Virus record (IMG/VR): IMGVR_UViG_3300046167_000924
Coordinates: 1 to 64,000 of that record
Reading direction: 5' to 3' (one strand)
DNA: 64,000 bases
Source of the DNA: a virus
Under the pieces are notes generated by a model. It was not told the DNA's origin, did not search any database, and was given only the letters and a program-made list of their open reading frames with translations. Position 1 is the first letter of the stretch; each line of letters starts with the position of its first letter. A program made the translations under genes and the position numbers. Of the stretch, positions 9,101 to 63,397 are shown in pieces.

Positions 9101-9430
9101 CCAAAATTTAACAAAAGAAAAGTAATACAGAAACTCGTCGTAGAGCCAAGTTCTCAAAAAAGAATCTTTTGGGCTCGCGAGATGAAGCTGTTAAATACCA
9201 TATTAGAAATTTTTCCCGATACAGATTTTTGGGAAAAAGTTAGACTTAGAAAAGTCAACAGTCTAGCGATGTTAAAAACGCAAAAAAGCCTTTCCTTTCT
9301 GAGGAAAAAATATAATGAATTTCATTATAAAATTCCAGAAAAAATAGAAATACCTCTTGGAGAAAAAACAGGGGAAGATAAATTTTTCTCGAAAAAACCA
9401 AAAACAATCAGACAATTCATAGATGAGTAA
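9098..9430 (+). CDS. Hypothetical protein
   Basis: 110 aa ORF at start of replication operon, overlaps recA start. Confidence 0.65.
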   Translation: MPKFNKRKVIQKLVVEPSSQKRIFWAREMKLLNTILEIFPDTDFWEKVRLRKVNSLAMLKTQKSLSFLRKKYNEFHYKIPEKIEIPLGEKTGEDKFFSKKPKTIRQFIDE

Positions 9431-10529
9431 AATAAAAGAAATTCAAACAACAGATCAAATTGCAAAATTCCTTGAAGATAAAGACAATAAAAAATATCAC
9501 TATAATTTTCACGAAAGTGAAGAGTATAAAATTTCAAGCGGAAGCCTAAATTTAGATATAGCTCTTGGAGGCGGACTCCCTAGTGGGGCTCACAGATTTA
9601 CAGGTATAAATGAGGGAGGTAAAACTAGTTGCGCCATGGCCTTTGCGAGGAACTTTCAAAAACACTTCTCTAAAAATGGAATGGTAATCTACATTAAAAG
9701 CGAAGGTAGGTTTAGTAAAGAAATGATGGAAAGGTCAGGAATCGACACAGACCCAGAAAAGCTTTTTATTTTTGATTGTAATATTTTCGAAAAAGTCTTT
9801 GAGTTAGTTAGAGACTTGGTCTTCAATAACGATCACGACAAAAAATATATGTTTATCATTGACAGCGTAGACGCTTTATGCAGAATTGGAGATATAGACA
9901 AACCGTTTGCTGAATCAGAGCAGGTTGCGGGTGGAGCCTTGATAACTTCTGTTTTCTTAAAGAAAATGGTTCTCCCGATAACTAAAATGGGGCACACAAT
10001 GATCCTAACTAGCCAAGTTAGAGTTGAAGTAGCAACAAACCCCTATGCAGCAAGGGGAGGGCCTAAAGTTAAACAGGCAGGAGGTAACGCAATAAAGCAT
10101 TATGCTAATTTTATTCTAGAGTTTGAAGAGAGGTATACAGGAGACTTAATGTTCAAAAACCCTACTGCCACCAAGCTCGACGACAAAGGAGAACCTATAG
10201 GACATTACTGCAAAATACGTTTTAGAAAAAGCGTTAACGAAAAAACAGGTTCCAGTGTAAGATATCCAATAAAGTATGGACAGAAAGATGGCAAATCCGT
10301 CTGGAGAGCAAGAGAAATATTAGATATGCTTTATCTATTTAATTTGATCCAGAAAAAAGGTGCATGGATATCTGTCTCAGAAGACTTAATAAAAGAACTT
10401 CAAGAAAAAGATTTAGAAATTAATGAAAAATTCCAAGGAGAGCAGAGGATAATCGACTTCCTGGAAGAAAACGAAAAGCTTTCTGATTTTCTTTATGAAG
10501 ATTTCAAGAAGTTAACAAATGCGCTTTAA
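9423..10529 (+). CDS. recA: RecA/UvsX-like recombinase
   Basis: SSGSLNLDIALGGGLP, Walker A variant GINEGGKTS, IIDSVDAL, GGNAIKHYA motifs. Confidence 0.9.
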   Translation: MSKIKEIQTTDQIAKFLEDKDNKKYHYNFHESEEYKISSGSLNLDIALGGGLPSGAHRFTGINEGGKTSCAMAFARNFQKHFSKNGMVIYIKSEGRFSKEMMERSGIDTDPEKLFIFDCNIFEKVFELVRDLVFNNDHDKKYMFIIDSVDALCRIGDIDKPFAESEQVAGGALITSVFLKKMVLPITKMGHTMILTSQVRVEVATNPYAARGGPKVKQAGGNAIKHYANFILEFEERYTGDLMFKNPTATKLDDKGEPIGHYCKIRFRKSVNEKTGSSVRYPIKYGQKDGKSVWRAREILDMLYLFNLIQKKGAWISVSEDLIKELQEKDLEINEKFQGEQRIIDFLEENEKLSDFLYEDFKKLTNAL

Positions 10530-22545: not shown

Positions 22546-24795
22546 ATGAAAATTATTGTTTTATTAGTTTTATCGTCCTTGTTGTCTTTTGGGGATGTTT
22601 TGTATTTTAACGATGGAAATAGCGTTAGGGGAGAAATAGTAGAGTCAAATAGCACACATGTTATGTTAAAAAGGGATCACGACTTGCAGCTTTTTCGAGT
22701 ACCTCTTGAGTTGCTAACTAAAGACCACAGAGCTTATGTAAAAAATAATTTTCCACCGAAACTTGAATATCTACCTAAATTTAAAAAACCTCTCTCCGAA
22801 AAGAGTTTAATTTTAAATGCAAGATACATAGACCAACTAGTCGAAAATAAATTAAGATCTTACAGCCAAAGACCAAATAAGGAAATAGACGACTCTACAT
22901 TTCTAAGAAGAGCTTATTTAAAAATAGCAGGTAGAACACCCTCGCATGCAGAATCCAAGCTCTTTCTCGAGGATCGCGGCAAAAATAAGAGAACAAATCT
23001 CATAGACGACCTATTGGCTAGTAATGGATATAATAGTCATTGGTTTAACTTTTGGGCAGATATATTAAGATTAAAAGACAGGTTAAGTAATAGAATATCA
23101 GGAATTCCATATAAAAATTATGTCAAGGAATTTGTATCTCAAAATAGGCCATACGACGAATGGGTAAGGGAAATGCTTTCTTCTTCTGGCCCCATATGGG
23201 AGAAAGGTAGCGAAGGAGTAGGTTACTTTGCGAGGGACGCAGGCATGCCTTTAGATAACATGGCAAACACTGTCCGGATCTTTCTTGGTACAAGTTTAGA
23301 GTGCGCGCAGTGTCACGACCACCCATTTGACAGATGGACGCAAAAAGAATTTTATGAAATGGCTGCATTTACTAGCGGGTCAACAAATTTAAGAAGAAAA
23401 GGCGTGGATAATCTCAACGAATTTAATAAACTAGTTAGAGAAGAACAGAAAAGGCTTGAAGAAGCTGGAGAGCCTCAAAAAGTACCTCAAATTAGAAACG
23501 CATCAAGGTCAATACAAGATATACTTCAGGCGGGGCTAGATCAGCCAGGATCAGGAAAAATCAACTTACCTAAAGATTATCAGTACGACAACGCAAAACC
23601 AAACGATTCTCTTTCAGGAAAAACGCTTTTTGGCAACGCCATAGAACTGAAATCAAAAAATACTGGCTCAAGGAAATTGTACGCAAACTGGCTAGCGTCA
23701 GAAACAAACCCAAGATTTACATCTGTAATTGTTAACAGATTATGGAAAGAAGTTTTTGGGTTAGCTCTAATTGAACCAATAGATAATATGTTTGACGAAA
23801 CAATGGCGACAGACCCAGTGCTACAATTGCATTTAGAAAAAATTATGGTCGCATTAAACTACGATATAAAAGAGTTTTTAAGAATACTTTATAATACAAA
23901 AACCTTTCAAAGACAATCCGTTTCTCGAGATATTGTACCCAGAGACGGAAAAGACACCATTATGCCAGTGGATGTCGAATGGGTTATTGCTGGACCAAAT
24001 GTTGAAAAACAATCTTTTAATGCAGTTCCATTCTTCTATCAGGGCCCTATTTTGCAAAGAATGAGCGGCGAGCAACTATGGGATTCGCTGGTCTCTTTAA
24101 ATTTTAAGGATATAGACTCTCGAAGACTTCAGCCAAAAAATTCAGGCTATCAGGATTTTGAGAGGTTTTCTAGTATGACAGGAGAAGAACTACTTGAAGA
24201 ATTGTTGTCTCGAATAAATAAGACAGAAAAGCCCAAGGCCAATAAAAAATTTGGAGATCCAATTAATATAGACTGCCCAATCAAACCTGGTCGAGCTATT
24301 GACCCAACTTTATTAGCGCTGAACGAAAACGGAGAAACTCTTGCATTCTGTTGCAAATCTTGCGTAGAAAAATTTAATTCTCAGAAAAAACAGCAATATA
24401 AGAATAATTTCGTAAAAGATAGAAACTCCGTTCGAGCATCAGAATTAAGCTCTCCAGCGCCCGTAGGTCATATAGTTAGAGAATTTGGAGGTTCAGATCG
24501 CGAACAAATTGAAAACTCAAATACAGACCCATCAACAACTCAAGTTCTTAATTTAATTAATGGTTTTGTTGAAACAAAAGTTATAAACAATAAAAACTCA
24601 GAGATAGTAAAATTAATAAAACAACAAAAAACATTAGATGATAAAATAAAAGTTGGCTTTAAGTCTATTTTAAATAGAAAACCTTCTATAGCAGAGTTAA
24701 AATTATTCAAAGACGCATTAATAAATAAAGAAGATATATACAAAGAAATAATATGGTCTTTAGTAAATTCACATGAATACATTTTTATAAAATAA
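22546..24795 (+). CDS. DUF1549/DUF1553 (PSCyt2/PSD1) protein with CxxCH motif and YHS-like insert
   Basis: IDQLV..DDSTFLRRAYLKIAGRTP, FLGTSLECAQCHDHPFDRWTQKEFYEMAAF, NPRFTSVIVNRLWKEVFG, REFGGSDRE, TQVLNLING, WSLVNSHEY; DCPI..FCCKSC insert. Confidence 0.9.
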   Translation: MKIIVLLVLSSLLSFGDVLYFNDGNSVRGEIVESNSTHVMLKRDHDLQLFRVPLELLTKDHRAYVKNNFPPKLEYLPKFKKPLSEKSLILNARYIDQLVENKLRSYSQRPNKEIDDSTFLRRAYLKIAGRTPSHAESKLFLEDRGKNKRTNLIDDLLASNGYNSHWFNFWADILRLKDRLSNRISGIPYKNYVKEFVSQNRPYDEWVREMLSSSGPIWEKGSEGVGYFARDAGMPLDNMANTVRIFLGTSLECAQCHDHPFDRWTQKEFYEMAAFTSGSTNLRRKGVDNLNEFNKLVREEQKRLEEAGEPQKVPQIRNASRSIQDILQAGLDQPGSGKINLPKDYQYDNAKPNDSLSGKTLFGNAIELKSKNTGSRKLYANWLASETNPRFTSVIVNRLWKEVFGLALIEPIDNMFDETMATDPVLQLHLEKIMVALNYDIKEFLRILYNTKTFQRQSVSRDIVPRDGKDTIMPVDVEWVIAGPNVEKQSFNAVPFFYQGPILQRMSGEQLWDSLVSLNFKDIDSRRLQPKNSGYQDFERFSSMTGEELLEELLSRINKTEKPKANKKFGDPINIDCPIKPGRAIDPTLLALNENGETLAFCCKSCVEKFNSQKKQQYKNNFVKDRNSVRASELSSPAPVGHIVREFGGSDREQIENSNTDPSTTQVLNLINGFVETKVINNKNSEIVKLIKQQKTLDDKIKVGFKSILNRKPSIAELKLFKDALINKEDIYKEIIWSLVNSHEYIFIK

Positions 24796-44329: not shown

Positions 44330-46201
44330 TTAGTTTATAAACATGGGAGTAAAGGTGGTAGCTACTGTTTCTACTTTAGAATCCATCATATCATAATAAA
44401 GTTTTATCATCCAATTTCCAAGTACCAATGCAGAATAACTATCTTTTCTCGCTTTTTCTGGCCCAGTTTGCCTTTTTAAACTTGGAGGTAAATCAAAATT
44501 TTGAGTGCCCGCTGAAGAGGTTGTGATTTGAATCAAAGAGCATTGCGTCTTGATCAAATTCATCATATCAAATTGATGCTCAACAAAGTCAATCATTTTT
44601 GCTTCTTTTGTTTGTCGCTCTCCAGATAAAGATGTTCGTAGAAAATTTATTTTATCGATTGGAATCTTTTGTCTTCGCTGAGTATTGTATTCATCATCAA
44701 TCGCACGAGAAGCGAATGCAATTCTGCGGTGATCGAAATTAGATTGCAATAATTCGTTTGCTCGCCTTATCCATTGACTAGTGGGTTTTCGCAAATAACA
44801 AATTGTATTATTATCTAAATTATATTCGCGCTTACCTTCTATTAATTTTTGTTGATAATTTTCTATATCATCAAAGTTTGTATTGATAAACTTTATATTG
44901 ATTTTATTCTCTTTAAACAAACTACTTTCATTCGCAGCATTCATAAACTGTACTCCACCATTATAATCGCCAACAATACTTACAATATTAAAATGTTTTA
45001 ATAAATAATAAAAATAATAAATATGTTGTTTTAAATTTGCTCCAGACAATGCATAGCTGTGAACCACAGTACCAGTTTTCTTTTCGTCATTTAATTTTAT
45101 AACCATCATTGCAAAGTCATCGCTACTCTCACTCTCAGCCCAACTTGGGTCGAACGCAAGAATATACTTTGAATCTGGAGCTCCTTTAATTTCTGTTGTC
45201 GGAGATTCTCCATCTTTTAATGTGCAGGCTGCCATTTTTGAGGTCTTAAAATAACCAGAACTATCGTCAGTAAAAATAGCCCCAAACTCTCGATCAAACT
45301 GACTTTGACTCATAGTTGATTTCGCCTGATCGATCAAATTTTGATCGTACAGCTGCCTGGGAGCGCAATCATAACTAAACTGCATTATAACTCGGTGGGC
45401 ATCCGATTCCTTTTTTCCGCCAACCCGAATGAGCTCTTCAAATTGCTCGTAAGCTTTATACATATATTCAAACTTGTAACTGGCAGAGGACAAAGCTATC
45501 AGTTTATTGTTTGGCCAAATATGGCGATCCTTTTCCTGCATTTTGCCTTGGCGTATAAGTTCTGTTTCGACATTATACAAATCCTCACGCTGTGTTGGAT
45601 TTTCAACAACACTCAAGAATGGTATAATAACCTCATTATAAATTCTTTCGGGCATCAAAGCAAACTCATCAATAATGATTCTGTGAAAACGAAATCCCCG
45701 AAGCTTCTCACCATCACCAAGAGGCAAGGCTCGTATTCTAGAACTTCCAATTTCTAGAAGCCACTCATCATTACTTTTAGATTTGTGAGTTATGCACTGC
45801 GAAAGGTACATAGCTTCAGGCTTAGCGGCGATATCCTCAATTTTTTTGAAAATCATTTTCGCCTGACGAAAAGATTTAGAAAGAATACCAATCTCAACAC
45901 CTTGATTCATTATCGCTTCTAAGTATGCATAAATAGCCGTAGTGAATGATTTACTCATTCCTCGACTCCAAACCCCCATAAAATAATCTGTTTCAAACAT
46001 AGCCTTGATAGCCATATGCTGAAAAGGAAAAAGTTTGACGCCAGATATAAGATCCGTAGTAAAGGTTATATTTTCCCGCAGAAACTTGTATAAAAGAATT
46101 TTAGCCTCTTCCTCTTCTAAATACCCTTCTAGTTCAAACAATTTTTTATTAAAGTCTGGGTCAGCATTTCTGCTTACCTGATTTCCTATTTCCCAAGCCA
46201 T
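44330..46201 (-). CDS. terL: Terminase large subunit
   Basis: LFPFQ..., SRGMSKSF (Walker A-like), LRGFRFHRIIIDEF (Walker B), nuclease AFDPS and KDSYSAL motifs. Confidence 0.85.
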   Translation of the reverse strand: MAWEIGNQVSRNADPDFNKKLFELEGYLEEEEAKILLYKFLRENITFTTDLISGVKLFPFQHMAIKAMFETDYFMGVWSRGMSKSFTTAIYAYLEAIMNQGVEIGILSKSFRQAKMIFKKIEDIAAKPEAMYLSQCITHKSKSNDEWLLEIGSSRIRALPLGDGEKLRGFRFHRIIIDEFALMPERIYNEVIIPFLSVVENPTQREDLYNVETELIRQGKMQEKDRHIWPNNKLIALSSASYKFEYMYKAYEQFEELIRVGGKKESDAHRVIMQFSYDCAPRQLYDQNLIDQAKSTMSQSQFDREFGAIFTDDSSGYFKTSKMAACTLKDGESPTTEIKGAPDSKYILAFDPSWAESESSDDFAMMVIKLNDEKKTGTVVHSYALSGANLKQHIYYFYYLLKHFNIVSIVGDYNGGVQFMNAANESSLFKENKINIKFINTNFDDIENYQQKLIEGKREYNLDNNTICYLRKPTSQWIRRANELLQSNFDHRRIAFASRAIDDEYNTQRRQKIPIDKINFLRTSLSGERQTKEAKMIDFVEHQFDMMNLIKTQCSLIQITTSSAGTQNFDLPPSLKRQTGPEKARKDSYSALVLGNWMIKLYYDMMDSKVETVATTFTPMFIN

Positions 46202-54953: not shown

Positions 54954-54978
54954 TAAGTACTTCTTTATCATATACTTA
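54954..54978 (+). repeat. Solo 25-bp palindromic box
   Basis: TAAGTACTTCTTTATCATATACTTA followed by CAGCACAAAG, upstream of a TTGACT promoter. Confidence 0.6.
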
Positions 54979-55082: not shown

Positions 55083-55331
55083 ATGAAATTATCACAAAAT
55101 AAAATACAAGCTCTCTTTTCAATACTTGCCGACGCTGACGAAGGTTGTAACGATCGTGCTTGCGATAACTTAGCAGAAGCCTTTGGTGGTAAACTTGGGC
55201 TTGGTGAAGTTGTTTCTTTACCTTCTGAGTTGTCATCTGAAAAAGTTGTTTCTGAAATACAAGATCCTGAGTTGTTTTGGGAGTCAGGATGCGTCGAAGC
55301 TTGTGAAGAAATACTTGAGCTTGTAAAATAA
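55083..55331 (+). CDS. Early-region hypothetical protein
   Basis: 82 aa ORF after TTGACT..TAGATT promoter. Confidence 0.6.
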   Translation: MKLSQNKIQALFSILADADEGCNDRACDNLAEAFGGKLGLGEVVSLPSELSSEKVVSEIQDPELFWESGCVEACEEILELVK

Positions 55332-55370
55332 AGCTTGCATTTTAAATCTTAAAACCTATAATAAATAATT

Positions 55371-55586
55371 ATGAATAAATCACAAATACTTTTCAAAATA
55401 GAATGTTTAAACAGTCGCTTAGATGCTTTTGAGTATGTTCGTGGAATCGGATGGTCTCCTGCTAAAGGGAAAGACAGAATTGAAATTCTTTCAGAAATTA
55501 AAAATTTAAGAGCTGAATTGCCTCGCGCAGAATACGAGCAAGAAGTTGCACAATACGGATGGAAGTCTGTAGAGCGTAATGCTTAA
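55371..55586 (+). CDS. Early-region hypothetical protein
   Basis: TTGCAT-16-TATAAT-8-ATG. Confidence 0.65.
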   Translation: MNKSQILFKIECLNSRLDAFEYVRGIGWSPAKGKDRIEILSEIKNLRAELPRAEYEQEVAQYGWKSVERNA

Positions 55587-55589
55587 ATT

Positions 55590-55666
55590 GTCAGAATAGC
55601 TCAGCAGGTTAGAGCGTTGGAATCATAACCCAAAGGTCGGCGGTTCAAATCCGCCTTCTGACACCA
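55590..55666 (+). tRNA. tRNA with CAT anticodon (Met or lysidine-Ile2)
   Basis: Acceptor GTCAGAA/TTCTGAC, D arm GCTC/GAGC, loop ATCATAA, T loop TTCAAAT, encoded CCA. Confidence 0.88.
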
Positions 55667-55667
55667 A

Positions 55668-55742
55668 GGGCTAATAGCTCAGTGGTAGAGCACCGCCTTG
55701 ATAAGGCGGCGGTCGGTGGTTCAAGTCCACCTTAGCCCACCA
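55668..55742 (+). tRNA. tRNA-Ile(GAT)
   Basis: Acceptor GGGCTAA/TTAGCCC, anticodon arm CCGCC-TTGATAA-GGCGG, T loop TTCAAGT, encoded CCA. Confidence 0.95.
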
Positions 55743-55753
55743 CTTTAATCTCG

Positions 55754-55830
55754 TAAAGTGTTAAGCGTCAACAACTTACGAGAAATTCTCCTAGGCTTTT
55801 TTGCGTAACTCGTTGGTATACAGCGACTTA
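55754..55830 (+). repeat. 77-bp two-box element 1
   Basis: Box 55754-55778, 27-nt spacer, box 55806-55830, then CAACAAA. Confidence 0.85.
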
Positions 55831-55884
55831 CAACAAACCTAAAACTTTTCTCAAAATAAACAAACTTTTTTTTGCGTGTTTGCA

Positions 55885-55909
55885 TAAGTATATGATAATC
55901 AACAGCTTA
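55885..55909 (+). repeat. Solo 25-bp palindromic box
   Basis: TAAGTATATGATAATCAACAGCTTA followed by CAACACAAAC. Confidence 0.75.
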
Positions 55910-55970
55910 CAACACAAACTTTTTTTGTTTCAGGCTTGACTTTTGTCGATTTATAGATTAGTTTAATAGT

Positions 55971-56117
55971 ATGTTAGATAAGAAAATAGAACAATTCATT
56001 CAAGACAACGGTCTTGTTCGTGTTCAAGCAAGCCCAATGTCAGAGGCTTTTGACCTTTGGGAATGTCCTGGTGGTCATGTTTGGAATCTTGAGATGATTA
56101 AACAAGCAATAAAATAA
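55971..56117 (+). CDS. Early-region small protein (48 aa)
   Basis: Hand-translated MLDKKIEQFIQDNGL...MIKQAIK; TTGACT-17-TAGTTT-6-ATG. Confidence 0.6.
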   Translation: MLDKKIEQFIQDNGLVRVQASPMSEAFDLWECPGGHVWNLEMIKQAIK

Positions 56118-56166
56118 TTCGCTTTTTGCTTGCAATTACATAAAAAATAGTTTACATTTAAAACAT

Positions 56167-56445
56167 ATGATTAAGACAAATAAAACAACATTCAAAGCAA
56201 TCGTCCATGTACATTCTATTGACGGAGATAAACTTCCATTGTGGAACACACACATGAACGCTTTTGTAGACACTACCTTAACACATCACATCTTGGAAAT
56301 TACTGCTGAAAACAAGCACGAAGTTCGTGCCAAGATCTCTCGCATGATGCCAAAATTACAACACAAAGTCCAACTTAAAAAAGGCTTTGAAAGAAAAGAA
56401 GGCGACAATGCCACTTGGTACATTCAACAAATTTATTCGAAATAA
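56167..56445 (+). CDS. Early-region protein, paralog of 57475..57750
   Basis: MIK start; TTGCAA-17-TACATT-8-ATG. Confidence 0.7.
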   Translation: MIKTNKTTFKAIVHVHSIDGDKLPLWNTHMNAFVDTTLTHHILEITAENKHEVRAKISRMMPKLQHKVQLKKGFERKEGDNATWYIQQIYSK

Positions 56446-56484
56446 GTTTGACACAATAAACAAAATACTTTAATCTACTATCAT

Positions 56485-56700
56485 ATGACAAATACATTAG
56501 AAGACAAATACCCAACTCTCGCAGTCGGGCTTGCAATGTCCAAAGCAGAAGGAAACTTAAAGTTTCTTGCTCAAGCTGAGATGTCAACCTTTACACAAGG
56601 GGAAGCCGTACTTGATGCGTTGCACGCATTACAGCAAGCACGCAAGGCATACGCTGAAGTCACAAAAGAGTTGAGTGAATTAAGAGACGGCTTAAAATAA
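56485..56700 (+). CDS. Early-region hypothetical protein
   Basis: TTGACA-17-TAATCT-8-ATG. Confidence 0.65.
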   Translation: MTNTLEDKYPTLAVGLAMSKAEGNLKFLAQAEMSTFTQGEAVLDALHALQQARKAYAEVTKELSELRDGLK

Positions 56701-56758
56701 TGCTTGACATAATCATTCTGTCTGTCATAATAGGAATCATAACAACAATAAAAGAATC

Positions 56759-57067
56759 ATGCGAAAAGTAACACAACAAATTAAACAAGCATTTGAACGC
56801 GGCGAAGCTAAGACGATTGGCAACACCACCACAGACGGCAACACCGTTTGGTTGCATGGTAACGCGATTGTCAAGCGTGACGCTGACGGCTTGGTTAGAT
56901 GGTCGCTTGCAGGATGGAACACACCCACCACACGCGAACGCGTCAACGGCATAGCTAATGCAGATGTTTGCCAATTCAAATTCGAGCCTATACTAAACGG
57001 GCAAGTCATTGACTCATCCGATTGGTTCGCATCGCCTAATTCATTGCCCGATCCTCTTGTGTTCTAA
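56759..57067 (+). CDS. Conserved phage early protein
   Basis: LHGNAI and SLAGWNTPTTRERVNG motif recalled from other phage small proteins; stop codon lies in box of element 2. Confidence 0.7.
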   Translation: MRKVTQQIKQAFERGEAKTIGNTTTDGNTVWLHGNAIVKRDADGLVRWSLAGWNTPTTRERVNGIANADVCQFKFEPILNGQVIDSSDWFASPNSLPDPLVF

Positions 57068-57141
57068 GTAGCACAGAGTCAACGACTTAGGGCAAATCGC
57101 CCTAGGCTTTTTTGCGTAACTCATTGAATACCAACAGCTTA
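57065..57141 (+). repeat. 77-bp two-box element 2
   Basis: Box 57065-57089, spacer GGGCAAATCGCCCTAGGCTTTTTTGCG, box 57117-57141. Confidence 0.9.
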
Positions 57142-57217
57142 CAACAAAATGAAAAAAAAGTTAAAAAAAATGAAAATAATACTTGACTTTTGCCGTTTTG
57201 TCTGATACATTGTATAT

Positions 57218-57415
57218 ATGATTAAGAATAATAAAATACAAGTTCGCATTAAAGAATGGTCAACCCATTGGTCAGTTAAGATCTTTGATCAAGGCACCGA
57301 CTCACAAGGCAATGATCGCCCACGAGTTCGCACGGCATCAAGCCAATCACATCTTAACAAGATCATGAGAGACGAAGGATTTAATCAATTCCGTTTTAAT
57401 GTTGTCTTTCAATAA
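57218..57415 (+). CDS. Early-region hypothetical protein
   Basis: MIK start; TTGACT-17-TACATT-6-ATG. Confidence 0.7.
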   Translation: MIKNNKIQVRIKEWSTHWSVKIFDQGTDSQGNDRPRVRTASSQSHLNKIMRDEGFNQFRFNVVFQ

Positions 57416-57474
57416 TAAGAAAAAAAAGTAAAATAAAGCTTGACTTTCAACCAAAACTAGATTAGATTATATAT

Positions 57475-57750
57475 ATGATTAAGAATAAAACATTCATTGC
57501 AAGCGTTCATGTCTCTTCCCTCGATGGTGAAGCAATTTCCTTATGGAATAGTAATACCAAGTCATACATCGACATTGACAAGACACATCATGCAATCACT
57601 ATCGAAGCTGAAGATAAGCATGAAGTCAGAAGAAAAGTTGCTCGCATGATTCGCACACTTCAACCGAAATTGCAATTCCAAACAAGCATTCAACGCAAAG
57701 ATGGCGATAATGCACAATACTACATCCAAGAAATAAGAGAGAAGAAATAA
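57475..57750 (+). CDS. Early-region protein, paralog of 56167..56445
   Basis: MIK start; TTGACT-17-TAGATT-6-ATG. Confidence 0.7.
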   Translation: MIKNKTFIASVHVSSLDGEAISLWNSNTKSYIDIDKTHHAITIEAEDKHEVRRKVARMIRTLQPKLQFQTSIQRKDGDNAQYYIQEIREKK

Positions 57751-57794
57751 ACTTTTCTCTTGACTCGATCACAAAAATTTGCTTTAATAATAAA

Positions 57795-57950
57795 ATGATA
57801 AATGTATTCAGACACCCGAATTTTGCTAATTGGTTTAATGTCGTCTTTAATGGCGAGCTAATTGACGGAGCGAGAACGCACGCACAAGCTCTTGAAATAG
57901 CCAAGGAATTAAGCGTAAAGTACAGTTCGCCGATTCTTTCTTCTAAGTAA
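57795..57950 (+). CDS. Early-region small protein (51 aa)
   Basis: Hand-translated MINVFRHPNFANWFNVVFNGELIDG...; TTGACT-17-TTTAAT-6-ATG; stop in element 3. Confidence 0.6.
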   Translation: MINVFRHPNFANWFNVVFNGELIDGARTHAQALEIAKELSVKYSSPILSSK

Positions 57951-58020
57951 CTGAAGGTCAACGACTTAGGGTAAATCGCCCTAGCCGGTTTTGCATAACT
58001 CCTTGATAGTCAGCGACTTA
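57944..58020 (+). repeat. 77-bp two-box element 3
   Basis: Box 57944-57968, 27-nt spacer, box 57996-58020. Confidence 0.9.
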
Positions 58021-58126
58021 CAACAAAAGTAAAAATAATTAATCTTTTTTTAAAAAACGCTTGACTTTGCTCCATTTTCTGATACATTGTATATATAACA
58101 TTAAATTAATATAACAAAAATAAATT

Positions 58127-58252
58127 ATGAATTACGACATCTTGCTTCTTTTAACTTTTATTCCTGCTTTCTTCTTTATGTATAAATCTATGGCAGAAAA
58201 GAAAATTGATCTTTTTTCAGATGTGAGTAAAGAAAAGCTTGACACAAAATAA
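58127..58252 (+). CDS. Small membrane peptide (41 aa)
   Basis: MNYDILLLLTFIPAFFFMYK...; promoter TTGACT..TACATT upstream. Confidence 0.45.
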   Translation: MNYDILLLLTFIPAFFFMYKSMAEKKIDLFSDVSKEKLDTK

Positions 58253-58301
58253 AATTACTATAATATAAAAATTATAAATCAAATTGCTAAAAATAAAAAA
58301 T

Positions 58302-58847
58302 ATGAAAATTAAAATATCTGAAGCTTGGAATAAACATCATGGAAAAAACTCTGTAAAGAGTAACAGAACAGATCTCGATCTCGGAGATATGCTTAAAATC
58401 TCAGAGCAAGCACAAGTCAAGTCAGAGCTTGAGGGAATCGAAAAGCTAGAAAAGATGATCGAAGCAAAAAAGAAAGAGATTGCAAACATCAAAGAAAAAT
58501 ACAAAAGAATAAGAAACAAAATCGCCCACGATCCGAAAGTGAAAATGTTAACAGACAGAGAGGAAAGAAACTGCTTTCATCAATCAATTTCAAATCTTGG
58601 AGTAAGAAAAAAGAGTCTTGGATGCTCGCTCGATCAATTCAGAATATTCTTAGATGTTCAACTCGAAGACGGCAAGTCTTGGTCTAATTGGACAAATAAA
58701 AATGTAGACAACGCTTGGAACATTGACCACATACAAGAGCGACAAAGTGGCGGGGGCAATCATTGGTCAAACTTCGTACCTCGTGACAGAAAAGAAAATC
58801 TTAACAAGGGTAAACTTGAAAGTGCATTCAATCATTTCTTGAAATAA
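58302..58847 (+). CDS. HNH-like endonuclease with N-terminal coiled coil
   Basis: WNIDHI..GGGNHWSNFVP..ENLNKG. Confidence 0.65.
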   Translation: MKIKISEAWNKHHGKNSVKSNRTDLDLGDMLKISEQAQVKSELEGIEKLEKMIEAKKKEIANIKEKYKRIRNKIAHDPKVKMLTDREERNCFHQSISNLGVRKKSLGCSLDQFRIFLDVQLEDGKSWSNWTNKNVDNAWNIDHIQERQSGGGNHWSNFVPRDRKENLNKGKLESAFNHFLK

Positions 58848-58897
58848 TTCGCATTCACACTTGACAGAAACAAAAAAATAGATTAGATTAAATACAT

Positions 58898-59098
58898 ATG
58901 ACAGAAACATTACTACAAGAAAAAAGAAGGCTTCAAGCCATCATTGACGACAATAACGACGATGCAGAAAATGGATCTACCTCAGCTAAAATGTGCGTGA
59001 TCTCAGCTCAAGCAGATCTCGACAGAATTGCTCAGAGTGAGCTTGCTGAGTTCGTCGCCCACACTCCACTACCTGACCCTCTCATCATAGTTGACTAG
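58898..59098 (+). CDS. Early-region hypothetical protein
   Basis: TTGACA-17-TAGATT-8-ATG. Confidence 0.65.
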   Translation: MTETLLQEKRRLQAIIDDNNDDAENGSTSAKMCVISAQADLDRIAQSELAEFVAHTPLPDPLIIVD

Positions 59099-59100
59099 CG

Positions 59101-59177
59101 TAAAGCGTTAGTAATCAACAACTTAGGGTAAACCGCCCTCCGGAGTTTTCCGTAACTCGTTGAAAGATAACGACTTA
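59101..59177 (+). repeat. 77-bp two-box element 4
   Basis: Box 59101-59125, 27-nt spacer, box 59153-59177. Confidence 0.9.
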
Positions 59178-59306
59178 CAACAAAATCAATACAGATTCCG
59201 TGCCAACTTTGCAAGAAAATAGCAGTCGAATTGTGCAAAAACATAGTTGAAAGGTAAGTGAGAATAAATTTGACAAACCCCTTTTTATGTGTTACCTTGT
59301 AGGTAT

Positions 59307-59510
59307 ATGATTAAGACAAAAGAAACAATAATAAAAGAAATCGACTTCGGAACTAAGCTCGCACAAATGGAGGGAGCGATCGACTTTCTTCATTATATGC
59401 AAACAGAAAAAAAAGATTCCGACAGAACTTTGACCGAAGAAATGACCACCAAAGGACTTCTCGAAAAGGTTCAAGAGCTTAGAAAAATATTCAAAGAATT
59501 ACAAAAATAA
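59307..59510 (+). CDS. Early-region hypothetical protein
   Basis: Start reassigned to MIK ATG; TTGACA-17-TACCTT-8-ATG. Confidence 0.65.
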   Translation: MIKTKETIIKEIDFGTKLAQMEGAIDFLHYMQTEKKDSDRTLTEEMTTKGLLEKVQELRKIFKELQK

Positions 59511-59559
59511 TTCACTTTGTGCTTGCAATTTACGAAAAAATAGATTAAATTAAATACAT

Positions 59560-59748
59560 ATGATTAAGAAAATTAAATTCAAAAAAGGCGATGTTCTCAT
59601 CTCACGAGATAATAAAGTCTTTCAATTTATTCAAGCTACCAAGCACGACACGCTTGGAATTATCGCAATGGTTCGCCCATACAGAACCAATCGCAAGGTT
59701 GGCATCCGATTTGAGGATGTAAAAATTCATCCACTTTTTGCAAAATAA
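59560..59748 (+). CDS. Early-region small basic protein
   Basis: MIK start; TTGCAA-17-TAAATT-8-ATG. Confidence 0.65.
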   Translation: MIKKIKFKKGDVLISRDNKVFQFIQATKHDTLGIIAMVRPYRTNRKVGIRFEDVKIHPLFAK

Positions 59749-59787
59749 GTTTGACAAACTCACATAATTAATCCATAATACTAAAAT

Positions 59788-60075
59788 ATGAATAACATTG
59801 ATCTCATTCGCCAAGCAATCGAAAACGCAAAAGATGCACCTGTTTCTAAAGGTTTGTCTAGCTTCATTCAAGACATGAAAGCCGAAATTATGGCTGAGGA
59901 GTTGGTCGTTGAGCATGGCTTGCTCGAAGCAACTCAAAGAGATGTCGAGGATGAGGTTTCAGAATTGGCTTCATCCGAAGACAAAGCCGAAGAAGATGAT
60001 GACTTCGACAATGACGAAAACCTCCACGATATGGAGTCAGTCAGTCCATCTATGCGAGCAATCTTTGAAGATTGA
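59788..60075 (+). CDS. Early-region acidic protein
   Basis: TTGACA-17-CATAAT-8-ATG; D/E-rich C-terminus. Confidence 0.65.
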   Translation: MNNIDLIRQAIENAKDAPVSKGLSSFIQDMKAEIMAEELVVEHGLLEATQRDVEDEVSELASSEDKAEEDDDFDNDENLHDMESVSPSMRAIFED

Positions 60076-60112
60076 TCTCGACAAGTCGCCCTCAATATGG
60101 TATAATAATAGC

Positions 60113-60286
60113 ATGAACAAAGCAATAACAGAAAAAATTGATACATTAATCAGCACGCTTCAAGCGTTGACAATTCAAAGAGTCAATGCCTTGAGACTCG
60201 GCAAGCAAGAAGAAGCAAGCCAAATTCAAGCCGTGCAAATTGATATTGACAATAAAATTCAAGAGTTAGAAAGGTCAATGTCCTAG
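60113..60286 (+). CDS. Early-region coiled-coil protein (57 aa)
   Basis: Start reassigned; TCGACA-17-TATAAT-6-ATG. Confidence 0.6.
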   Translation: MNKAITEKIDTLISTLQALTIQRVNALRLGKQEEASQIQAVQIDIDNKIQELERSMS

Positions 60287-60404
60287 TGGATTTGTTAACA
60301 ATTATGATTATCGCATCGTTAATTGGAATTTTTAGAGGCTTAACTGATTGTGCCTTTTAATTGCACAATCCCTTTATAGGGCAAGAGAAAAGTTTAGTTT
60401 TTCC

Positions 60405-60481
60405 TAAGTTGTTGCAAGTCAATGACTTAGGGAAAGCCGCCCAAGGCTTTTTTTCGTAAGTCCTTAATTACAAGTGACTTA
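60405..60481 (+). repeat. 77-bp two-box element 5
   Basis: Box 60405-60429, 27-nt spacer, box 60457-60481. Confidence 0.9.
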
Positions 60482-60536
60482 CAACAGAATGAAAAAAAAG
60501 TTTGACAAAGCTGTACGATTTTGATAGATTACAATT

Positions 60537-60728
60537 ATGGAAAATAATGATTCACTCACTCGCCTCTCTCACGCCAACGGCATCACCGATGTCGATCTTG
60601 ACGAGCGTCAAGCAATCCTTGGCCAGCTTGTTCAAGACGAGCTGGAGGAGTCTGATCGTCAGGCTCTAAAACAATTCTCTGAAAATGAGGATATAGACTG
60701 GGGCTACCACGACCAATACGACTTTTAA
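60537..60728 (+). CDS. Early-region acidic protein
   Basis: TTGACA-17-TAGATT-6-ATG. Confidence 0.65.
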   Translation: MENNDSLTRLSHANGITDVDLDERQAILGQLVQDELEESDRQALKQFSENEDIDWGYHDQYDF

Positions 60729-60730
60729 CA

Positions 60731-60807
60731 TAAGTCGTTAAACATCAAGGGCTTAGGGAAAACCATCCTAGGCCTTTTTTCGCAAGTCGTTGATACTCAA
60801 CACATTC
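60731..60807 (+). repeat. 77-bp two-box element 6
   Basis: Box 60731-60755, 27-nt spacer, box 60783-60807; at convergence of the + and - gene blocks. Confidence 0.85.
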
Positions 60808-60852
60808 GGATTTCTTAGTTCAAATCATTATTTATGTATTTGTATTTGTTGT

Positions 60853-61029
60853 TTAAATATTTGGTATTTGCAACTTTACCGTTCGTTTGGTCAATTCAAT
60901 TGTATAAGGTGAATGTTCAGTTACTCGATCAAGATCTGATTCGAGGTTACGAATGGCGTTGACAATATAGTCGAGCGTGCCAACGATTCCGGCGGGCTCT
61001 CCGTTTTTAAGTATTTGGTAACTAGTCAT
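60853..61029 (-). CDS. Hypothetical protein
   Basis: MTSYQILKNGE... start overlapping upstream stop. Confidence 0.5.
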   Translation of the reverse strand: MTSYQILKNGEPAGIVGTLDYIVNAIRNLESDLDRVTEHSPYTIELTKRTVKLQIPNI

Positions 61030-61354
61030 TTTTTTGTTTATCTTGTTTTGTTTTCTGCAAAAGCTTTTCGTGTTGCACTCCATCTTGTTGAAATTGACTC
61101 ATCAACTTAGAAACTTGCATTCTATCCTGCCAACCAAGAACATCGTCAAAAGGTTGCAACGGAACAAAATCTCCACGCTGATTGAATACTGCGACTTCGT
61201 AAGTGTTTGGGTGATCTCCATAAAAACAAGTTCCACCTTCTACATTGGATACAACGCTAATAGCGTAACCATTATCGAAAGTTATACTTGCTTGGACTCC
61301 CAAATCTTTTGCACTAGAGTGAGGTTGAAAGTTCAAATCATCAAAGGTCTTCAT
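61022..61354 (-). CDS. Conserved phage hypothetical protein
   Basis: MKTFDDLNF..FDNGYAISVV..YEVAV..DDVLGW motif. Confidence 0.7.
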   Translation of the reverse strand: MKTFDDLNFQPHSSAKDLGVQASITFDNGYAISVVSNVEGGTCFYGDHPNTYEVAVFNQRGDFVPLQPFDDVLGWQDRMQVSKLMSQFQQDGVQHEKLLQKTKQDKQKND

Positions 61355-61541
61355 GGTAGATATATATTGGATTATTGTTGTGTGTGAGTGTTGCGTGTTT
61401 TACGAATGTTTTACTTGAGATGTTCTTCTCGAATGTTGCTTGCGAGATAAAGACATCGGTCTGCTCGGTCTTCTTCTCTGCTTTAATAAGGACAACGCAT
61501 CCGTCTTTGCTTTTGGTAATTAGATGTTTTTCTTTGTTCAT
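61341..61541 (-). CDS. Hypothetical protein
   Basis: 66 aa ORF in a tightly packed operon. Confidence 0.6.
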   Translation of the reverse strand: MNKEKHLITKSKDGCVVLIKAEKKTEQTDVFISQATFEKNISSKTFVKHATLTHNNNPIYIYHEDL

Positions 61542-61784
61542 TTAGTTTCTGTAATGAGATGAGTCTTGCGATTCTGTGAGAGTTTCGTAAGCGTGAGCTT
61601 TTTGAGCGATGCACTTTAACGCACTACCAACTACATTTAACATTGAAAGTTGATCATTGTCAAGCATATTCTTGTCGGTCATAGGCTCGATCATATTGTC
61701 ATGGATGAATGCCATAACTAATTCGTTTGCTTCGAGCGAGTCAACATCTTGGACTTGCAAGTGGTTTGGGTCGTTAAGATACAT
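61542..61784 (-). CDS. Hypothetical protein
   Basis: 80 aa ORF in a tightly packed operon. Confidence 0.6.
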   Translation of the reverse strand: MYLNDPNHLQVQDVDSLEANELVMAFIHDNMIEPMTDKNMLDNDQLSMLNVVGSALKCIAQKAHAYETLTESQDSSHYRN

Positions 61785-61899
61785 AAGTCAATTTGGTTTT
61801 GTGTTTTAGTTTTCTGTCAAGAATTTTGTTTTTCATCTTGAAAGGGCGAGCTTTTGTAAAGAGAATGGATTGTCTTATCTTAATTTTTTTCGCTTTCAT
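61774..61899 (-). CDS. Small basic protein (41 aa)
   Basis: MKAKKIKIRQSILFTKARPFK...; TTGACT-16-CATACT-7-ATG. Confidence 0.6.
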   Translation of the reverse strand: MKAKKIKIRQSILFTKARPFKMKNKILDRKLKHKTKLTYVS

Positions 61900-61961
61900 A
61901 ATTAATAGTATGACAGAATTTTTTGTGAAGTCAAGTGTTTTTTTAGTGAATAATAAAATGA

Positions 61962-62065
61962 TACCAAACACGGAGGGAGTCGAACCCACAAGAGTATAAT
62001 TAGGACTGCAATCCGCACCTCTCTTAATCACCACTAATTTGCAGATTAGTTTGATCGTGTTGGTA
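61962..62065 (-). ncRNA. tRNA-like structured RNA
   Basis: Terminal stem TACCAA-CACG/CGTG-T-TTGGTA, T-arm GTGGG-TTCGACT-CCCTC, two hairpins with YTGCAR hexaloops; own promoter TTGACT-16-CATACT; no CCA. Confidence 0.55.
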
Positions 62066-62130
62066 AGTATTAGTATGTCAGAATCTCAAACTAAGTCAAC
62101 CCCTAAATGCAAAAAAAATGAAAATAGTTG

Positions 62131-62207
62131 CAAGCTCTTGATGCTCAATGACTTGCGCGAAAACGCCCAGGGCTTTTTGCCCTAACTAGTTCATAGCCAA
62201 CAGTTTA
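62131..62207 (-). repeat. 77-bp two-box element 7 (inverted)
   Basis: Boxes 62131-62155 and 62183-62207, 27-nt spacer reads GGGCAAAAAGCCCTGGGCGTTTTCGCG on minus. Confidence 0.85.
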
Positions 62208-62287
62208 TGACATCTGCATAAATACATAATAAAATGTATGCACTAAAGGTTAATAAAATTGATGTAAATAATAATGCTTTAATCATT

Positions 62288-62455
62288 TTAATATCCTAAC
62301 CATTCCAATACTTTTTGTGCATTATACTCTTCTTTGTCGCCCATGTCCAAAATAAATTGATGAATATCTTGGCAACCATGTTTTGAGAGTTCCTCAAACG
62401 CTCTTGTTTGGCTAATCATTAAATCTTCGGCTGAATCGTAATATGTTTCACTCAT
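62288..62455 (-). CDS. Small phage protein (55 aa)
   Basis: Hand-translated MSETYYDSAEDL...DMGDKEEYNAQKVLEWLGY; ATGA overlap with upstream gene. Confidence 0.65.
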   Translation of the reverse strand: MSETYYDSAEDLMISQTRAFEELSKHGCQDIHQFILDMGDKEEYNAQKVLEWLGY

Positions 62456-63174
62456 GAGTTTATCCCTTCCTTTACAAATCCTGTACTATCCTTTTTTGCC
62501 ATACCTTTCTCGATAAGACCAACGACCACACCTTGCTTGTCTAAAAAGCGAAGGTCATTATCATCGCCATTGATAACTTCAAAACCTTGCCAAGTTTTAG
62601 GTAATTGATTGCGAAACACTACGGCAACATTGCCACCCATGCCCAAAACCATTTTGCCAAGTTTCTGATTGGTTTCGGAAAGTGAGAAAGTTAAATGGTA
62701 GTTACTTGGCAATTCTCCATGAATAAATTGTTTCATCCGTTCAAATGACTTTGTATAGTCATAAAATTGAATTGACGGAAACTTATCAAAGATTGACTTT
62801 GGCTGATCTTCGCTGAAGAAAACAGATTCCCAAGCGATGTCGCTTGTAAGGTTAAGTCTGAAGACGGACTTCATTCCTTTCTTTGTAGATGTCTTAATTG
62901 AATTAGAAATTTCCTTTGATAACTTTGCAAGAAAATCCAACTGCTGAGTAAAAAACAATTTTGTCTTTGCTATGCGAGACTTTTGGATTGAGTCCATGCG
63001 ACCACGACCAGCAGTGTTAAGGCAAGAAGCAGTGCAACCTTTACTTCGCCAACGACAAACTTCGAAGCCCGAAAGTTGAGCAGGAGCGAGGTGAATTCCT
63101 TTAGTTGTATAGCCTAGCTTTTCGCCTTTGACTATCTTTGCGTTTCCTTGAGTGAGTAGTGTTGTCTTAATCAT
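62452..63174 (-). CDS. Gp88-like phage protein
   Basis: NAK..K..LAPA..SG.EVC..GC..SCL..AGRG, FRLNLTSDI.W, FYDYTK, NYHLTFS, DGD..DLRFLD motifs; MIK start after TTGACT-16-CATAAT-7. Confidence 0.7.
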   Translation of the reverse strand: MIKTTLLTQGNAKIVKGEKLGYTTKGIHLAPAQLSGFEVCRWRSKGCTASCLNTAGRGRMDSIQKSRIAKTKLFFTQQLDFLAKLSKEISNSIKTSTKKGMKSVFRLNLTSDIAWESVFFSEDQPKSIFDKFPSIQFYDYTKSFERMKQFIHGELPSNYHLTFSLSETNQKLGKMVLGMGGNVAVVFRNQLPKTWQGFEVINGDDNDLRFLDKQGVVVGLIEKGMAKKDSTGFVKEGINS

Positions 63175-63247
63175 GTATTCCATTATGACAGAATAAGGTG
63201 TGAAGTCAACCCCTAAATGCAAAAAAAGTAAAAAAAGTTTTGTTGCG

Positions 63248-63324
63248 GATGTCGTTGATACGCAAAGGCTTACGAAAAAAAGCCTAGGCCCGTTTTCCAT
63301 AACTGCCTGGCCTGCAACGACTTA
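63248..63324 (-). repeat. 77-bp two-box element 8 (inverted)
   Basis: Boxes 63248-63272 and 63300-63324, 27-nt spacer. Confidence 0.8.
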
Positions 63325-63344: not shown

Positions 63345-63370
63345 CAAAAAAGCCTCCCCGAAGGGAGGCT
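63345..63370 (-). terminator. Rho-independent terminator
   Basis: Minus strand AGCCTCCC-TTCG-GGGAGGCT-TTTTTT. Confidence 0.85.
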
Positions 63371-63397
63371 TGAGCCTACTCGTTTCCGAGCTTGCGA

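Follow-up and report, generated by a model that had tools for sequence, protein, structure and literature searches.

We analysed a window of 64,000 nucleotides (nt), i.e., positions 1 to 64,000 of the virus record IMGVR_UViG_3300046167_000924, in which eight copies of a 77-nt bipartite element punctuate a block of early genes. The window encodes DnaB, a Pol III alpha-like polymerase, ClpB, RNR, a UvsX-like recombinase (9423–10529), TerL and PhoH. Its source is a large uncultured marine phage: seawater metagenomes hold sequence of this phage, and TerL is at most 27% identical to that of cultured phages, i.e., there is no close cultured relative. Among GenBank phages, DNA relatives of the early region were limited to tRNA-like pieces.

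Eight elements in a block of very small genes

The block of very small genes spans 54.8–63.4 kb, on the + strand at 55083–60728 and on the − strand beyond 60853. Nearly each gene has its own TTGAC-N16–18-TAnnnT promoter (55335–60539 on the + strand; 63172–63209 and 61897–61934 on the − strand). At 12 promoters the start ATG lies 3–14 nt past the −10 and no Shine-Dalgarno sequence is visible, hence the early mRNAs would have a very short leader or none. Several unrelated early open reading frames (ORFs) begin with ATGATTAAGA.

All eight elements lie within this block, each oriented with the transcription of its genes. From upstream to downstream, an element cassette consists of box1 (25 nt), a centre (27 nt), box2 (25 nt), a tail of the CAACAAAA type, A-tracts of about 10 nt, a promoter and the ATG; the boxes are imperfect palindromes. 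Box1 starts at 55754, 57065, 57944, 59101, 60405 and 60731 on the + strand, and at 62131 and 63248 for the two copies present as reverse complements. The eight copies align gap-free over about 91 nt. With up to three mismatches allowed, the box pattern matched 11 times in the window, compared with 0.09 matches expected from shuffles. A covariance model built from the eight copies recovered them at 70–91 bits and gave none in window positions 1–54000; its other matches were weaker ones on the reverse strand, the solo box at 55885 and noise. Element coordinates and strands as given in a preliminary description of this DNA were thereby reproduced, as were the two boxes that it had listed as standing alone. 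The features are as follows.

e1, 55754..55838, + strand: box1 55754–55778, hairpin and T-run 55779–55805, box2 55806–55830, tail CAACAAAC; covariance model 87 bits
e2, 57065..57149, + strand: terminator-like hairpin 57086–57106, T6 57108–57113, box2 57117–57141, tail CAACAAAA; covariance model 91 bits
e3, 57944..58028, + strand: box1 contains the stop codon of ORF 57795–57950
e4, 59101..59185, + strand: weak variant of the predicted terminator (CCGGAG, T4); next promoter 93 nt downstream
e5, 60405..60489, + strand: RNA fold with three clean hairpins (z −6.2); T7 run; promoter 20 nt past box2
e6, 60731..60807, + strand: convergence point; strongest predicted terminator; box2 degenerate; no promoter after it
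e7, 62123..62207, − strand: reverse complement; promoter TTGACT at 62099, 31 nt past box2
e8, 63240..63324, − strand: reverse complement; most diverged copy; promoter at 63209, 38 nt past box2
solo box 1, 54954..54978, no strand assigned: in a divergent intergenic region; lies within the 84-nt direct repeat D6, with the −35 of the first early promoter (55005) 26 nt downstream
solo box 2, 55885..55909, no strand assigned: 26 nt upstream of the promoter at 55936
downstream half-cassette, example after e2, 57142..57220, + strand: phased A-tracts, TTGACT-N17-TACATT, ATG 6 nt past the −10

The ORF list agreed with the description that elements begin at or near the upstream stop codons at 57067, 57950, 59098 and 60728; in e2 the TAA of box1 is itself the stop codon of ORF 56759–57067. 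The ORF map and the alignment likewise agreed that orientation follows transcription and flips near 60.8 kb, where e6 marks the convergence point. That a fresh sigma70 promoter follows the elements held for e1–e5, e7 and e8, which precede a TTGAC-N16–18-TAnnnT promoter, but not for e6. In e6, RNAfold predicts 12 bp (about 9 in the consensus register) directly before the T6 run.

Some smaller features adjoin the elements. Between an early gene and e1 lie tRNA-Met and tRNA-Ile (55590–55742), with e1 beginning 11 nt past tRNA-Ile; both tRNAs are absent in the related loci L021 and L001, with a breakpoint inside box1 of e1. These two tRNAs were the only Rfam matches in the window. Directly upstream of e8 is a canonical strong terminator (63350–63371, − strand; 9-bp stem, TTCG loop, T-run), so that this boundary has two predicted terminators in tandem. 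A hydrophobic ORF of 31 codons (MIKALLFTSILL..., 62191–62286, − strand) has its stop within box1 of e7, and the 79-bp segment 62208–62286 is missing from L005, L006 and L021. The promoter after e7 reads into an ORF-free stretch of about 100 nt (61963–62099, − strand) with a T-arm-like GGGTTCGACTCCC, for which neither ARAGORN nor Rfam made a call.

Occurrence of element and box in other genomes

A degenerate pattern of the element core retrieved 25 IMG/VR loci, and nhmmer yielded 110 sites, i.e., 86 unique copies, 80 of which were gap-free; tandem overlapping forms (box-spacer-box-spacer-box) also exist. Among GenBank phages, BLAST of a box pair gave no useful match. The exact 25-nt box pattern was far more widespread, with at least 119 IMG/VR stretches compared with 2 and 2 for composition-matched scrambled palindromes, i.e., the box is about 60-fold over-represented. 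Among the matches listed, G+C content of the loci ranged from 29 to 59%, and 57 of 118 loci share genes with the window, including PhoH, a GP88-family protein and structural genes. The 834 boxes in these matches are mostly paired around a G+C-rich, often hairpin-forming centre of 16–33 nt, which results in start-to-start box spacings clustering at 41–42, 48–50, 52–53 and 58 bp. The wider consensus reads CG-TAAGTCGTTGA-N3-TCAACGACTTA-CG, with TCAACGACTTA as half-site.

The statement that the spacing never varies hence stands for the window and the close family but not for this wider set, and we conclude that the 52-bp spacing is a trait of the close family, not a universal constraint. This also weakens the idea that 52-bp phasing places both boxes on the same DNA face for cooperative binding.

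Two related whole records (140 and 126 kb) have every site within one region of about 11 kb, and in complete genomes of 170 and 195 kb the boxes are found within one region of 9–11 kb. This distribution bears on whether the element is a selfish one, i.e., a miniature inverted-repeat transposable element (MITE), a repetitive extragenic palindrome (REP) or a bacterial interspersed mosaic element (BIME)-like unit that spread within the early region and has no regulatory role. Its 25-bp terminal inverted repeats, which begin and end in TA, its multiple copies and its tandem overlapping forms would suit such an origin. We nevertheless give this explanation hardly any credence: copies are confined to one region of about 10 kb in genomes of 125–195 kb and are always oriented with transcription, and the box is conserved across phages of 29–59% G+C and phased with promoters (see below). 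Moreover, the indels among relatives are gene cassettes rather than elements, and the synteny comparison, which included no systematic search for them, gave no empty-site polymorphism.

We found no match of the element core pattern in 185,579 bacterial and archaeal species genomes. The bare box pattern, counted without a scrambled control, occurred in more than 120 stretches of bacterial genomes. Their variable positions are A/T-rich, their arms covary and their stems are extended, and many follow tRNA genes; we read them as ordinary perfect hairpins caught by a palindromic query, together with unrelated repeats (WOR-3, Microscillaceae), and rejected them as phage boxes. Rfam reported nothing on the box in 18 bacterial loci. 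Contigs of a WOR-3 metagenome-assembled genome (L027, L029, L040, L091 and others) and a Hydrothermia metagenome-assembled genome hold many copies of a repeat, partly in tandem units of about 215 bp, in which a perfect TAAGTnnTTGATAATCAAnnACTTA palindrome adjoins a GGGGGGCGAAGCCCCCC hairpin; this family is unrelated to the phage box.

A literature string search for TCAACGACTTA led to a table of predicted terminators for DLP6, a T4-like Stenotrophomonas phage (KU682439; PMC5349666); the table gives the sequences as terminator flanks only. The stem-loops are listed there as terminators, and the accompanying passage makes no mention of the repeat (PMC5349666). In the DLP6 genome we counted the half-site 28 times in forward and 4 times in reverse orientation, compared with 0 for the control. 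The sites lie 10, 20–21 or 31 nt upstream of TTTAC-N17-TATAAT promoters. In both phages the 11-mer TCAACGACTTA is identical and lies on the sense strand; a stem-loop follows directly, and this stem-loop adjoins an early-type promoter. In contrast to the window, the DLP6 half-sites usually form tandem direct pairs 25 nt apart instead of inverted pairs, and they are spread across 110 kb of the genome. KU682439.2 contains about 14 cassettes of two copies of TGTAAAATCAACGACTTA, a stem-loop and GCTTTAC-N17-TATAAT, for example at 45312–45420, 74441–74540 and 121605–121700. This tandem arrangement was found in 3 IMG/VR stretches only. DLP6 shares just PhoH, RNR and one more ORF with the window, so the word is common to unrelated phages; this may reflect a host-type factor that both encounter, transfer of a regulator, or convergence.

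Central hairpin, boxes and promoter register

RNAalifold retained the central helix of the element only. In the 80 gap-free copies, which we used to compare the parts of the element, this is the sole helix with compensatory changes: its pairs 32–40 and 33–39 occur as CG, AU, UG and GC. Centres fold with a mean free energy of −6.7 kcal/mol, compared with −2.5 kcal/mol for shuffles. A T-run of at least 4 nt, beginning 3–5 nt past the stem, is present in 71 copies. The hairpin borrows the last bases of box1 (CTTAGGGC / GCCCTAGG in e2) and the T-run comes next. Among 62 contexts of relatives, the upstream stop codon falls at element column 0, 5 or 9 in 41, and in 19 of those the TAA of TAAGT serves as the stop. 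The centre thus has the features of an intrinsic terminator, i.e., a G+C-rich hairpin with a U-run within a few nt, downstream of a gene and co-oriented with it. The covarying centre bears out the earlier view of the spacer as a terminator-like hairpin, and transcription would be predicted to end at the T-runs.

The boxes showed no such covariation. Standard pairs made up 74.2% when the boxes were modelled as local hairpins and 75.2% when they were modelled as nested arms, compared with 74.0% and 75.7%, respectively, after shuffling. Among the matches listed for the many phages, 781 unique boxes had Watson-Crick frequencies at 11 stem positions close to those expected from independent half-sites (|z| ≤2.3); pairing was rarer than expected at the outer loop pair 12–14 (z −5.7) and commoner at the flanking pair 0–26 (z +5.1). 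As RNA hairpins the boxes average −2.2 and −3.4 kcal/mol, about 1–2 kcal/mol better than shuffles. From the lack of covariation and the weak RNA folding we read the boxes as a sequence motif and not as a stem. Inner half-sites (columns 19–29 and 57–67) are much better conserved than outer ones, and box2 has decayed in e6, the one element that no promoter follows. An inverted repeat that is conserved in sequence, with no compensatory changes between its arms, is what a dyad protein site would look like. Mutual information over all column pairs was uninformative, being dominated by subfamily structure, and a tRNA-like origin of the 77-nt unit was dropped, as neither ARAGORN nor Rfam made a call.

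The distance from the box to the −35 (TTGAC) of the next promoter is periodic at 10.6 bp (power 27, 157 contexts). After clustering to 74 contexts the power was 15, and none of 5000 jittered sets reached the observed power. Distances to the −35 in the window are 20, 31, 38, 40, 41 and 93 nt, and 26 nt for the solo boxes; box2 lies 20–42 nt from the −35 in 48 of 79 contexts. The 10.6-bp period is the fixed helical register expected of a dyad transcription-factor site. Such a register belongs to DNA in its double-stranded form, and it links the boxes with the promoter downstream.

These data also bear on an RNA-level element, i.e., three hairpins or one nested hairpin acting as a 3′-end stabiliser or as an RNase III-type processing site. 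Orientation with transcription and a start at the stop codon would suit this explanation, as would folds of single sequences, which yield three hairpins for e1 and e5 and one long nested hairpin for e3 and e4 (z between −1 and −6), and nested arms (b1R:b2L) that are 80% complementary. However, the boxes do not covary under either pairing model, A·C mismatches exceed G·U, box hairpins are barely stabler than shuffles, and the e2 lineage has kept a 'broken' left arm in all orthologues. Furthermore, promoter phasing is a matter of DNA, a working terminator would halt transcription ahead of box2, and the solo boxes precede a promoter in an intergenic region between divergent genes, where transcription was not measured. 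We therefore regard an RNA-level role of the boxes as rather unlikely. RNase III sites of T7 early genes are homologous intergenic repeats with long continuous double-stranded RNA stems, co-oriented with early transcription. The boxes are likewise co-oriented intergenic repeats between small early genes, but their pairing is 68–80% and does not covary. BIMEs of enterobacteria, including their repetitive IHF-binding palindromic (RIP) form, are inverted REP pairs around an IHF site at gene 3′ ends and are bound by architectural proteins. They resemble the element in having two inverted palindromic units around a short centre at gene 3′ ends; they are, however, chromosomal and dispersed, and REP hairpins covary whereas the boxes do not.

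The element might also be a degenerate terminator family kept alike by gene conversion, its palindromic flanks being functionless, since the central hairpin is the sole covarying part and the repeats recombine. We consider this unlikely, more so than an RNA-level role. In distant phages the boxes are far better conserved than the centre, which varies in sequence and in length (16–33 nt) and may even lack its T-run, and the approximately 60-fold excess over scrambled controls and the helical phasing with the promoter both concern the boxes.

Conservation of the box in at least 119 stretches and its 10.6-bp register thus point to DNA-level protein sites tied to the next promoter, and the box is most likely the docking site of a putative regulator. 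The earlier suggestion of selection for protein binding is hence supported, by conserved sequence with no compensatory change and by helical register with the downstream promoter. The IHF core is WATCAANNNNTTR, and the half-site invariants TCAA-N4-TTA coincide with it; because the W and A positions ahead of them vary, and a host that has IHF would be required, we treat this likeness as a lead only. PhoH and GP88 adjoin the box region in many loci, but this co-occurrence is not specific: PhoH-bearing cyanophage S-RSM4 and GP88-bearing pelagiphage HTVC309P have no motif, and we dismissed both proteins as binders. N4-type hairpin promoters, likeness to T7-type promoters, lambda boxA and Chi sites were set aside for misfits of spacing or context.

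Cassette exchange and a proposed compound boundary

In the 25 loci we mapped 47 unique synteny breakpoints, of which 20 lie at promoters, 10 at elements and 2 at solo boxes. These features cover 28% of the region and hold 32 of the breakpoints. Segment 55015–55862, between the solo-box repeats, is absent in L001. L001, L006 and L025 lack the gene at 60537–60728; the loss runs exactly from box to box, and a single box serves both e5 and e6 in these loci. RNA data came from four RNA-library runs and consisted of assembled contigs of relatives only. A contig joint 60456→60731 shows the same loss of this gene. Two clean contig joints have 3–6 nt of shared homology, and alignments gave overlaps of 26–83 nt; one joint 'goes back', which is no proof of circles. 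Comparison of relatives hence agreed with the earlier view that elements bound gene cassettes: breakpoints are enriched there, and elements form edges of exchanged cassettes.

Two further observations concern the exchanged genes. The ORF at 58284–58847 (187 residues, + strand), which has a promoter of its own, gave weak matches of the HNH / endonuclease VII-like kind and is probably a homing endonuclease gene inserted as a free-standing unit. L001 lacks it, as do contigs from two RNA libraries, in which a joint 58246→58842 marks the gap. Also, unrelated ORFs end in LPDPL before e2 (SLPDPLVF*, 57040–57067) and before e4 (PLPDPLIIVD*, 59069–59098). A contig joint 57031→59114 links both ends, and exchange homology may hence extend into gene 3′ ends.

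Shuffling of this kind could point to site-specific recombination sites in an integron-like or invertase-like cassette system. Such a system would account for the cassette 60537–60728, which is bounded by two boxes and leaves one shared box in the three relatives that lack it, for the breakpoint within box1 of e1 and for the inversion of e7 and e8 relative to the other copies. Against it, each cassette carries its own promoter, the box has no GTTRRRY core, and its odd 3-bp centre is unsuited to serine recombinases. As a weak point, no integrase or recombinase match was seen among the approximately 55 window ORFs with Pfam or PHROGs, where no such model was searched in the window or in relatives. 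Of the 47 breakpoints, the repeated promoters account for 20 and the elements for 10, a stronger enrichment at promoters that fits ordinary homologous recombination, as do the short shared homology at joints and the encoded UvsX-like recombinase. We therefore consider dedicated recombination sites very unlikely, and the earlier suggestion of integron-like shuffling loses ground.

The exchange instead fits homologous shuffling as described for the promoter-early and promoter-middle stem-loop cassettes (PeSL and PmSL) of T4-type phages (Arbiol et al. 2010, PMC2839356; Comeau et al. 2014, PMC4122927). Exchange of this type in the window family would need no dedicated recombinase. Like PeSLs, the elements have a stem-loop or terminator that is closely followed by an AT-rich tract and a sigma70-like early promoter, they are repeated between small ORFan genes in a hyperplastic region, and indels or replacements among relatives have their edges in the motif (32 of 47 breakpoints). 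They differ in that the predicted terminator is flanked by two conserved dyad boxes of 25–29 bp, not described for PeSLs, in the ATG position 3–14 nt past the −10 with no Shine-Dalgarno sequence, and in the phage itself, which is not T4-type, as judged from its distant TerL and from only four proteins being shared with the T4-like DLP6. A further PeSL trait is mini-circles that arise when flanking motifs recombine. The preliminary description had recognised no named element with such an architecture; this still applies to the box, while the cassette principle is the published PeSL one.

With somewhat better than even confidence we favour the element as a compound boundary, i.e., a terminator plus two protein-binding dyads that serve the next promoter, with recombination as a by-product. 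In this model, the centre hairpin and its U-run would end the upstream unit at or just past its stop codon. The two flanking boxes, copies of one dyad word, would act at the DNA level as predicted protein sites, and phased A-tracts would hold them on a fixed helix face relative to the next sigma70-type promoter. Binding would repress, boost or insulate early promoters, and terminator read-through may also change. Modules of 80–200 bp (box, terminator, box, A-tracts, promoter and shared 5′ ends) recur between cassettes and would thus be substrates for homologous recombination, by which small early genes could be gained, lost or swapped between related phages.

Several observations weigh against the compound boundary. 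In the wider set, the spacings between boxes do not share one helical phase, and the series of the window family (20, 30–31, 40–41) lies about 3 nt off the globally preferred phase; moreover, the 10.6-bp quantisation could partly reflect gain or loss of A-tract units of about 10 nt. Most promoters of the early block have no box. Predicted terminator strength varies, with e6 and e2 good and the e4 type poor (its T4 run stands apart from the stem), and in many high-GC relatives no T-run follows the spacer hairpin. RNA-library contigs overlap relatives of the region and one stops at the T-run of e2, but contig ends are not transcript ends, and this stop is unreadable as a 3′ end since repeats break assemblies. 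Lack of covariation is also compatible with hairpin function in recently diverged repeats. In two related records, no homologues of HU/IHF or ParB/KorB were found.

Both the binding of a protein to the box and the sign of its effect we infer from sequence. Operators for early shut-off, as proposed earlier, represent one possible direction of regulation; the sites, however, lie upstream of the promoter core and not over it, and activation or insulation would hence be just as likely. Aca operators consist of inverted repeats in pairs, placed at the strong early promoters that drive small anti-host (anti-CRISPR) genes, where a phage helix-turn-helix protein shuts transcription off. The boxes resemble them as paired inverted repeats at early promoters, but Aca operators overlap the promoter core while the boxes lie 6–105 nt upstream of the −35, and no Aca-like gene was identified. 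DNA entry signals as in T5 and decoys for a host DNA-binding protein, both proposed earlier, found no support.

More tentatively, and as a possibility on which we would not rely, the 25–29-bp dyad with half-site TCAACGACTTA may be the docking site of one conserved factor (a host protein found in many bacteria, or a virion-delivered or early phage protein), and hence a portable early-transcription module across a whole group of uncultured environmental phages of about 125–195 kb with 29–59% G+C and, rearranged, in DLP6. If so, it would be an 'early promoter enhancer/insulator' word shared across lineages, and one that also seeds the exchange of cassettes. Early 'host-takeover' regions are the least understood and fastest-changing genome parts of large phages, and the window offers a precise, testable control word there, conserved beyond its surroundings, promoter-phased, coupled to a predicted terminator and located at gene-exchange seams. 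The identity of its binder would explain the timing or insulation of early genes in a large group of uncultured phages and would carry the PeSL concept, in which regulatory cassettes recombine, to phages other than the T4 type. As the half-site occurs in the culturable Stenotrophomonas maltophilia phage DLP6, the question is open to bench work.

Outside the early block, a 749-residue protein (22546–24795, + strand) combines PSCyt2 (DUF1549) and PSD1 (DUF1553), domains typical of Planctomycetota/Verrucomicrobiota, and gives a hint that the host may belong there.

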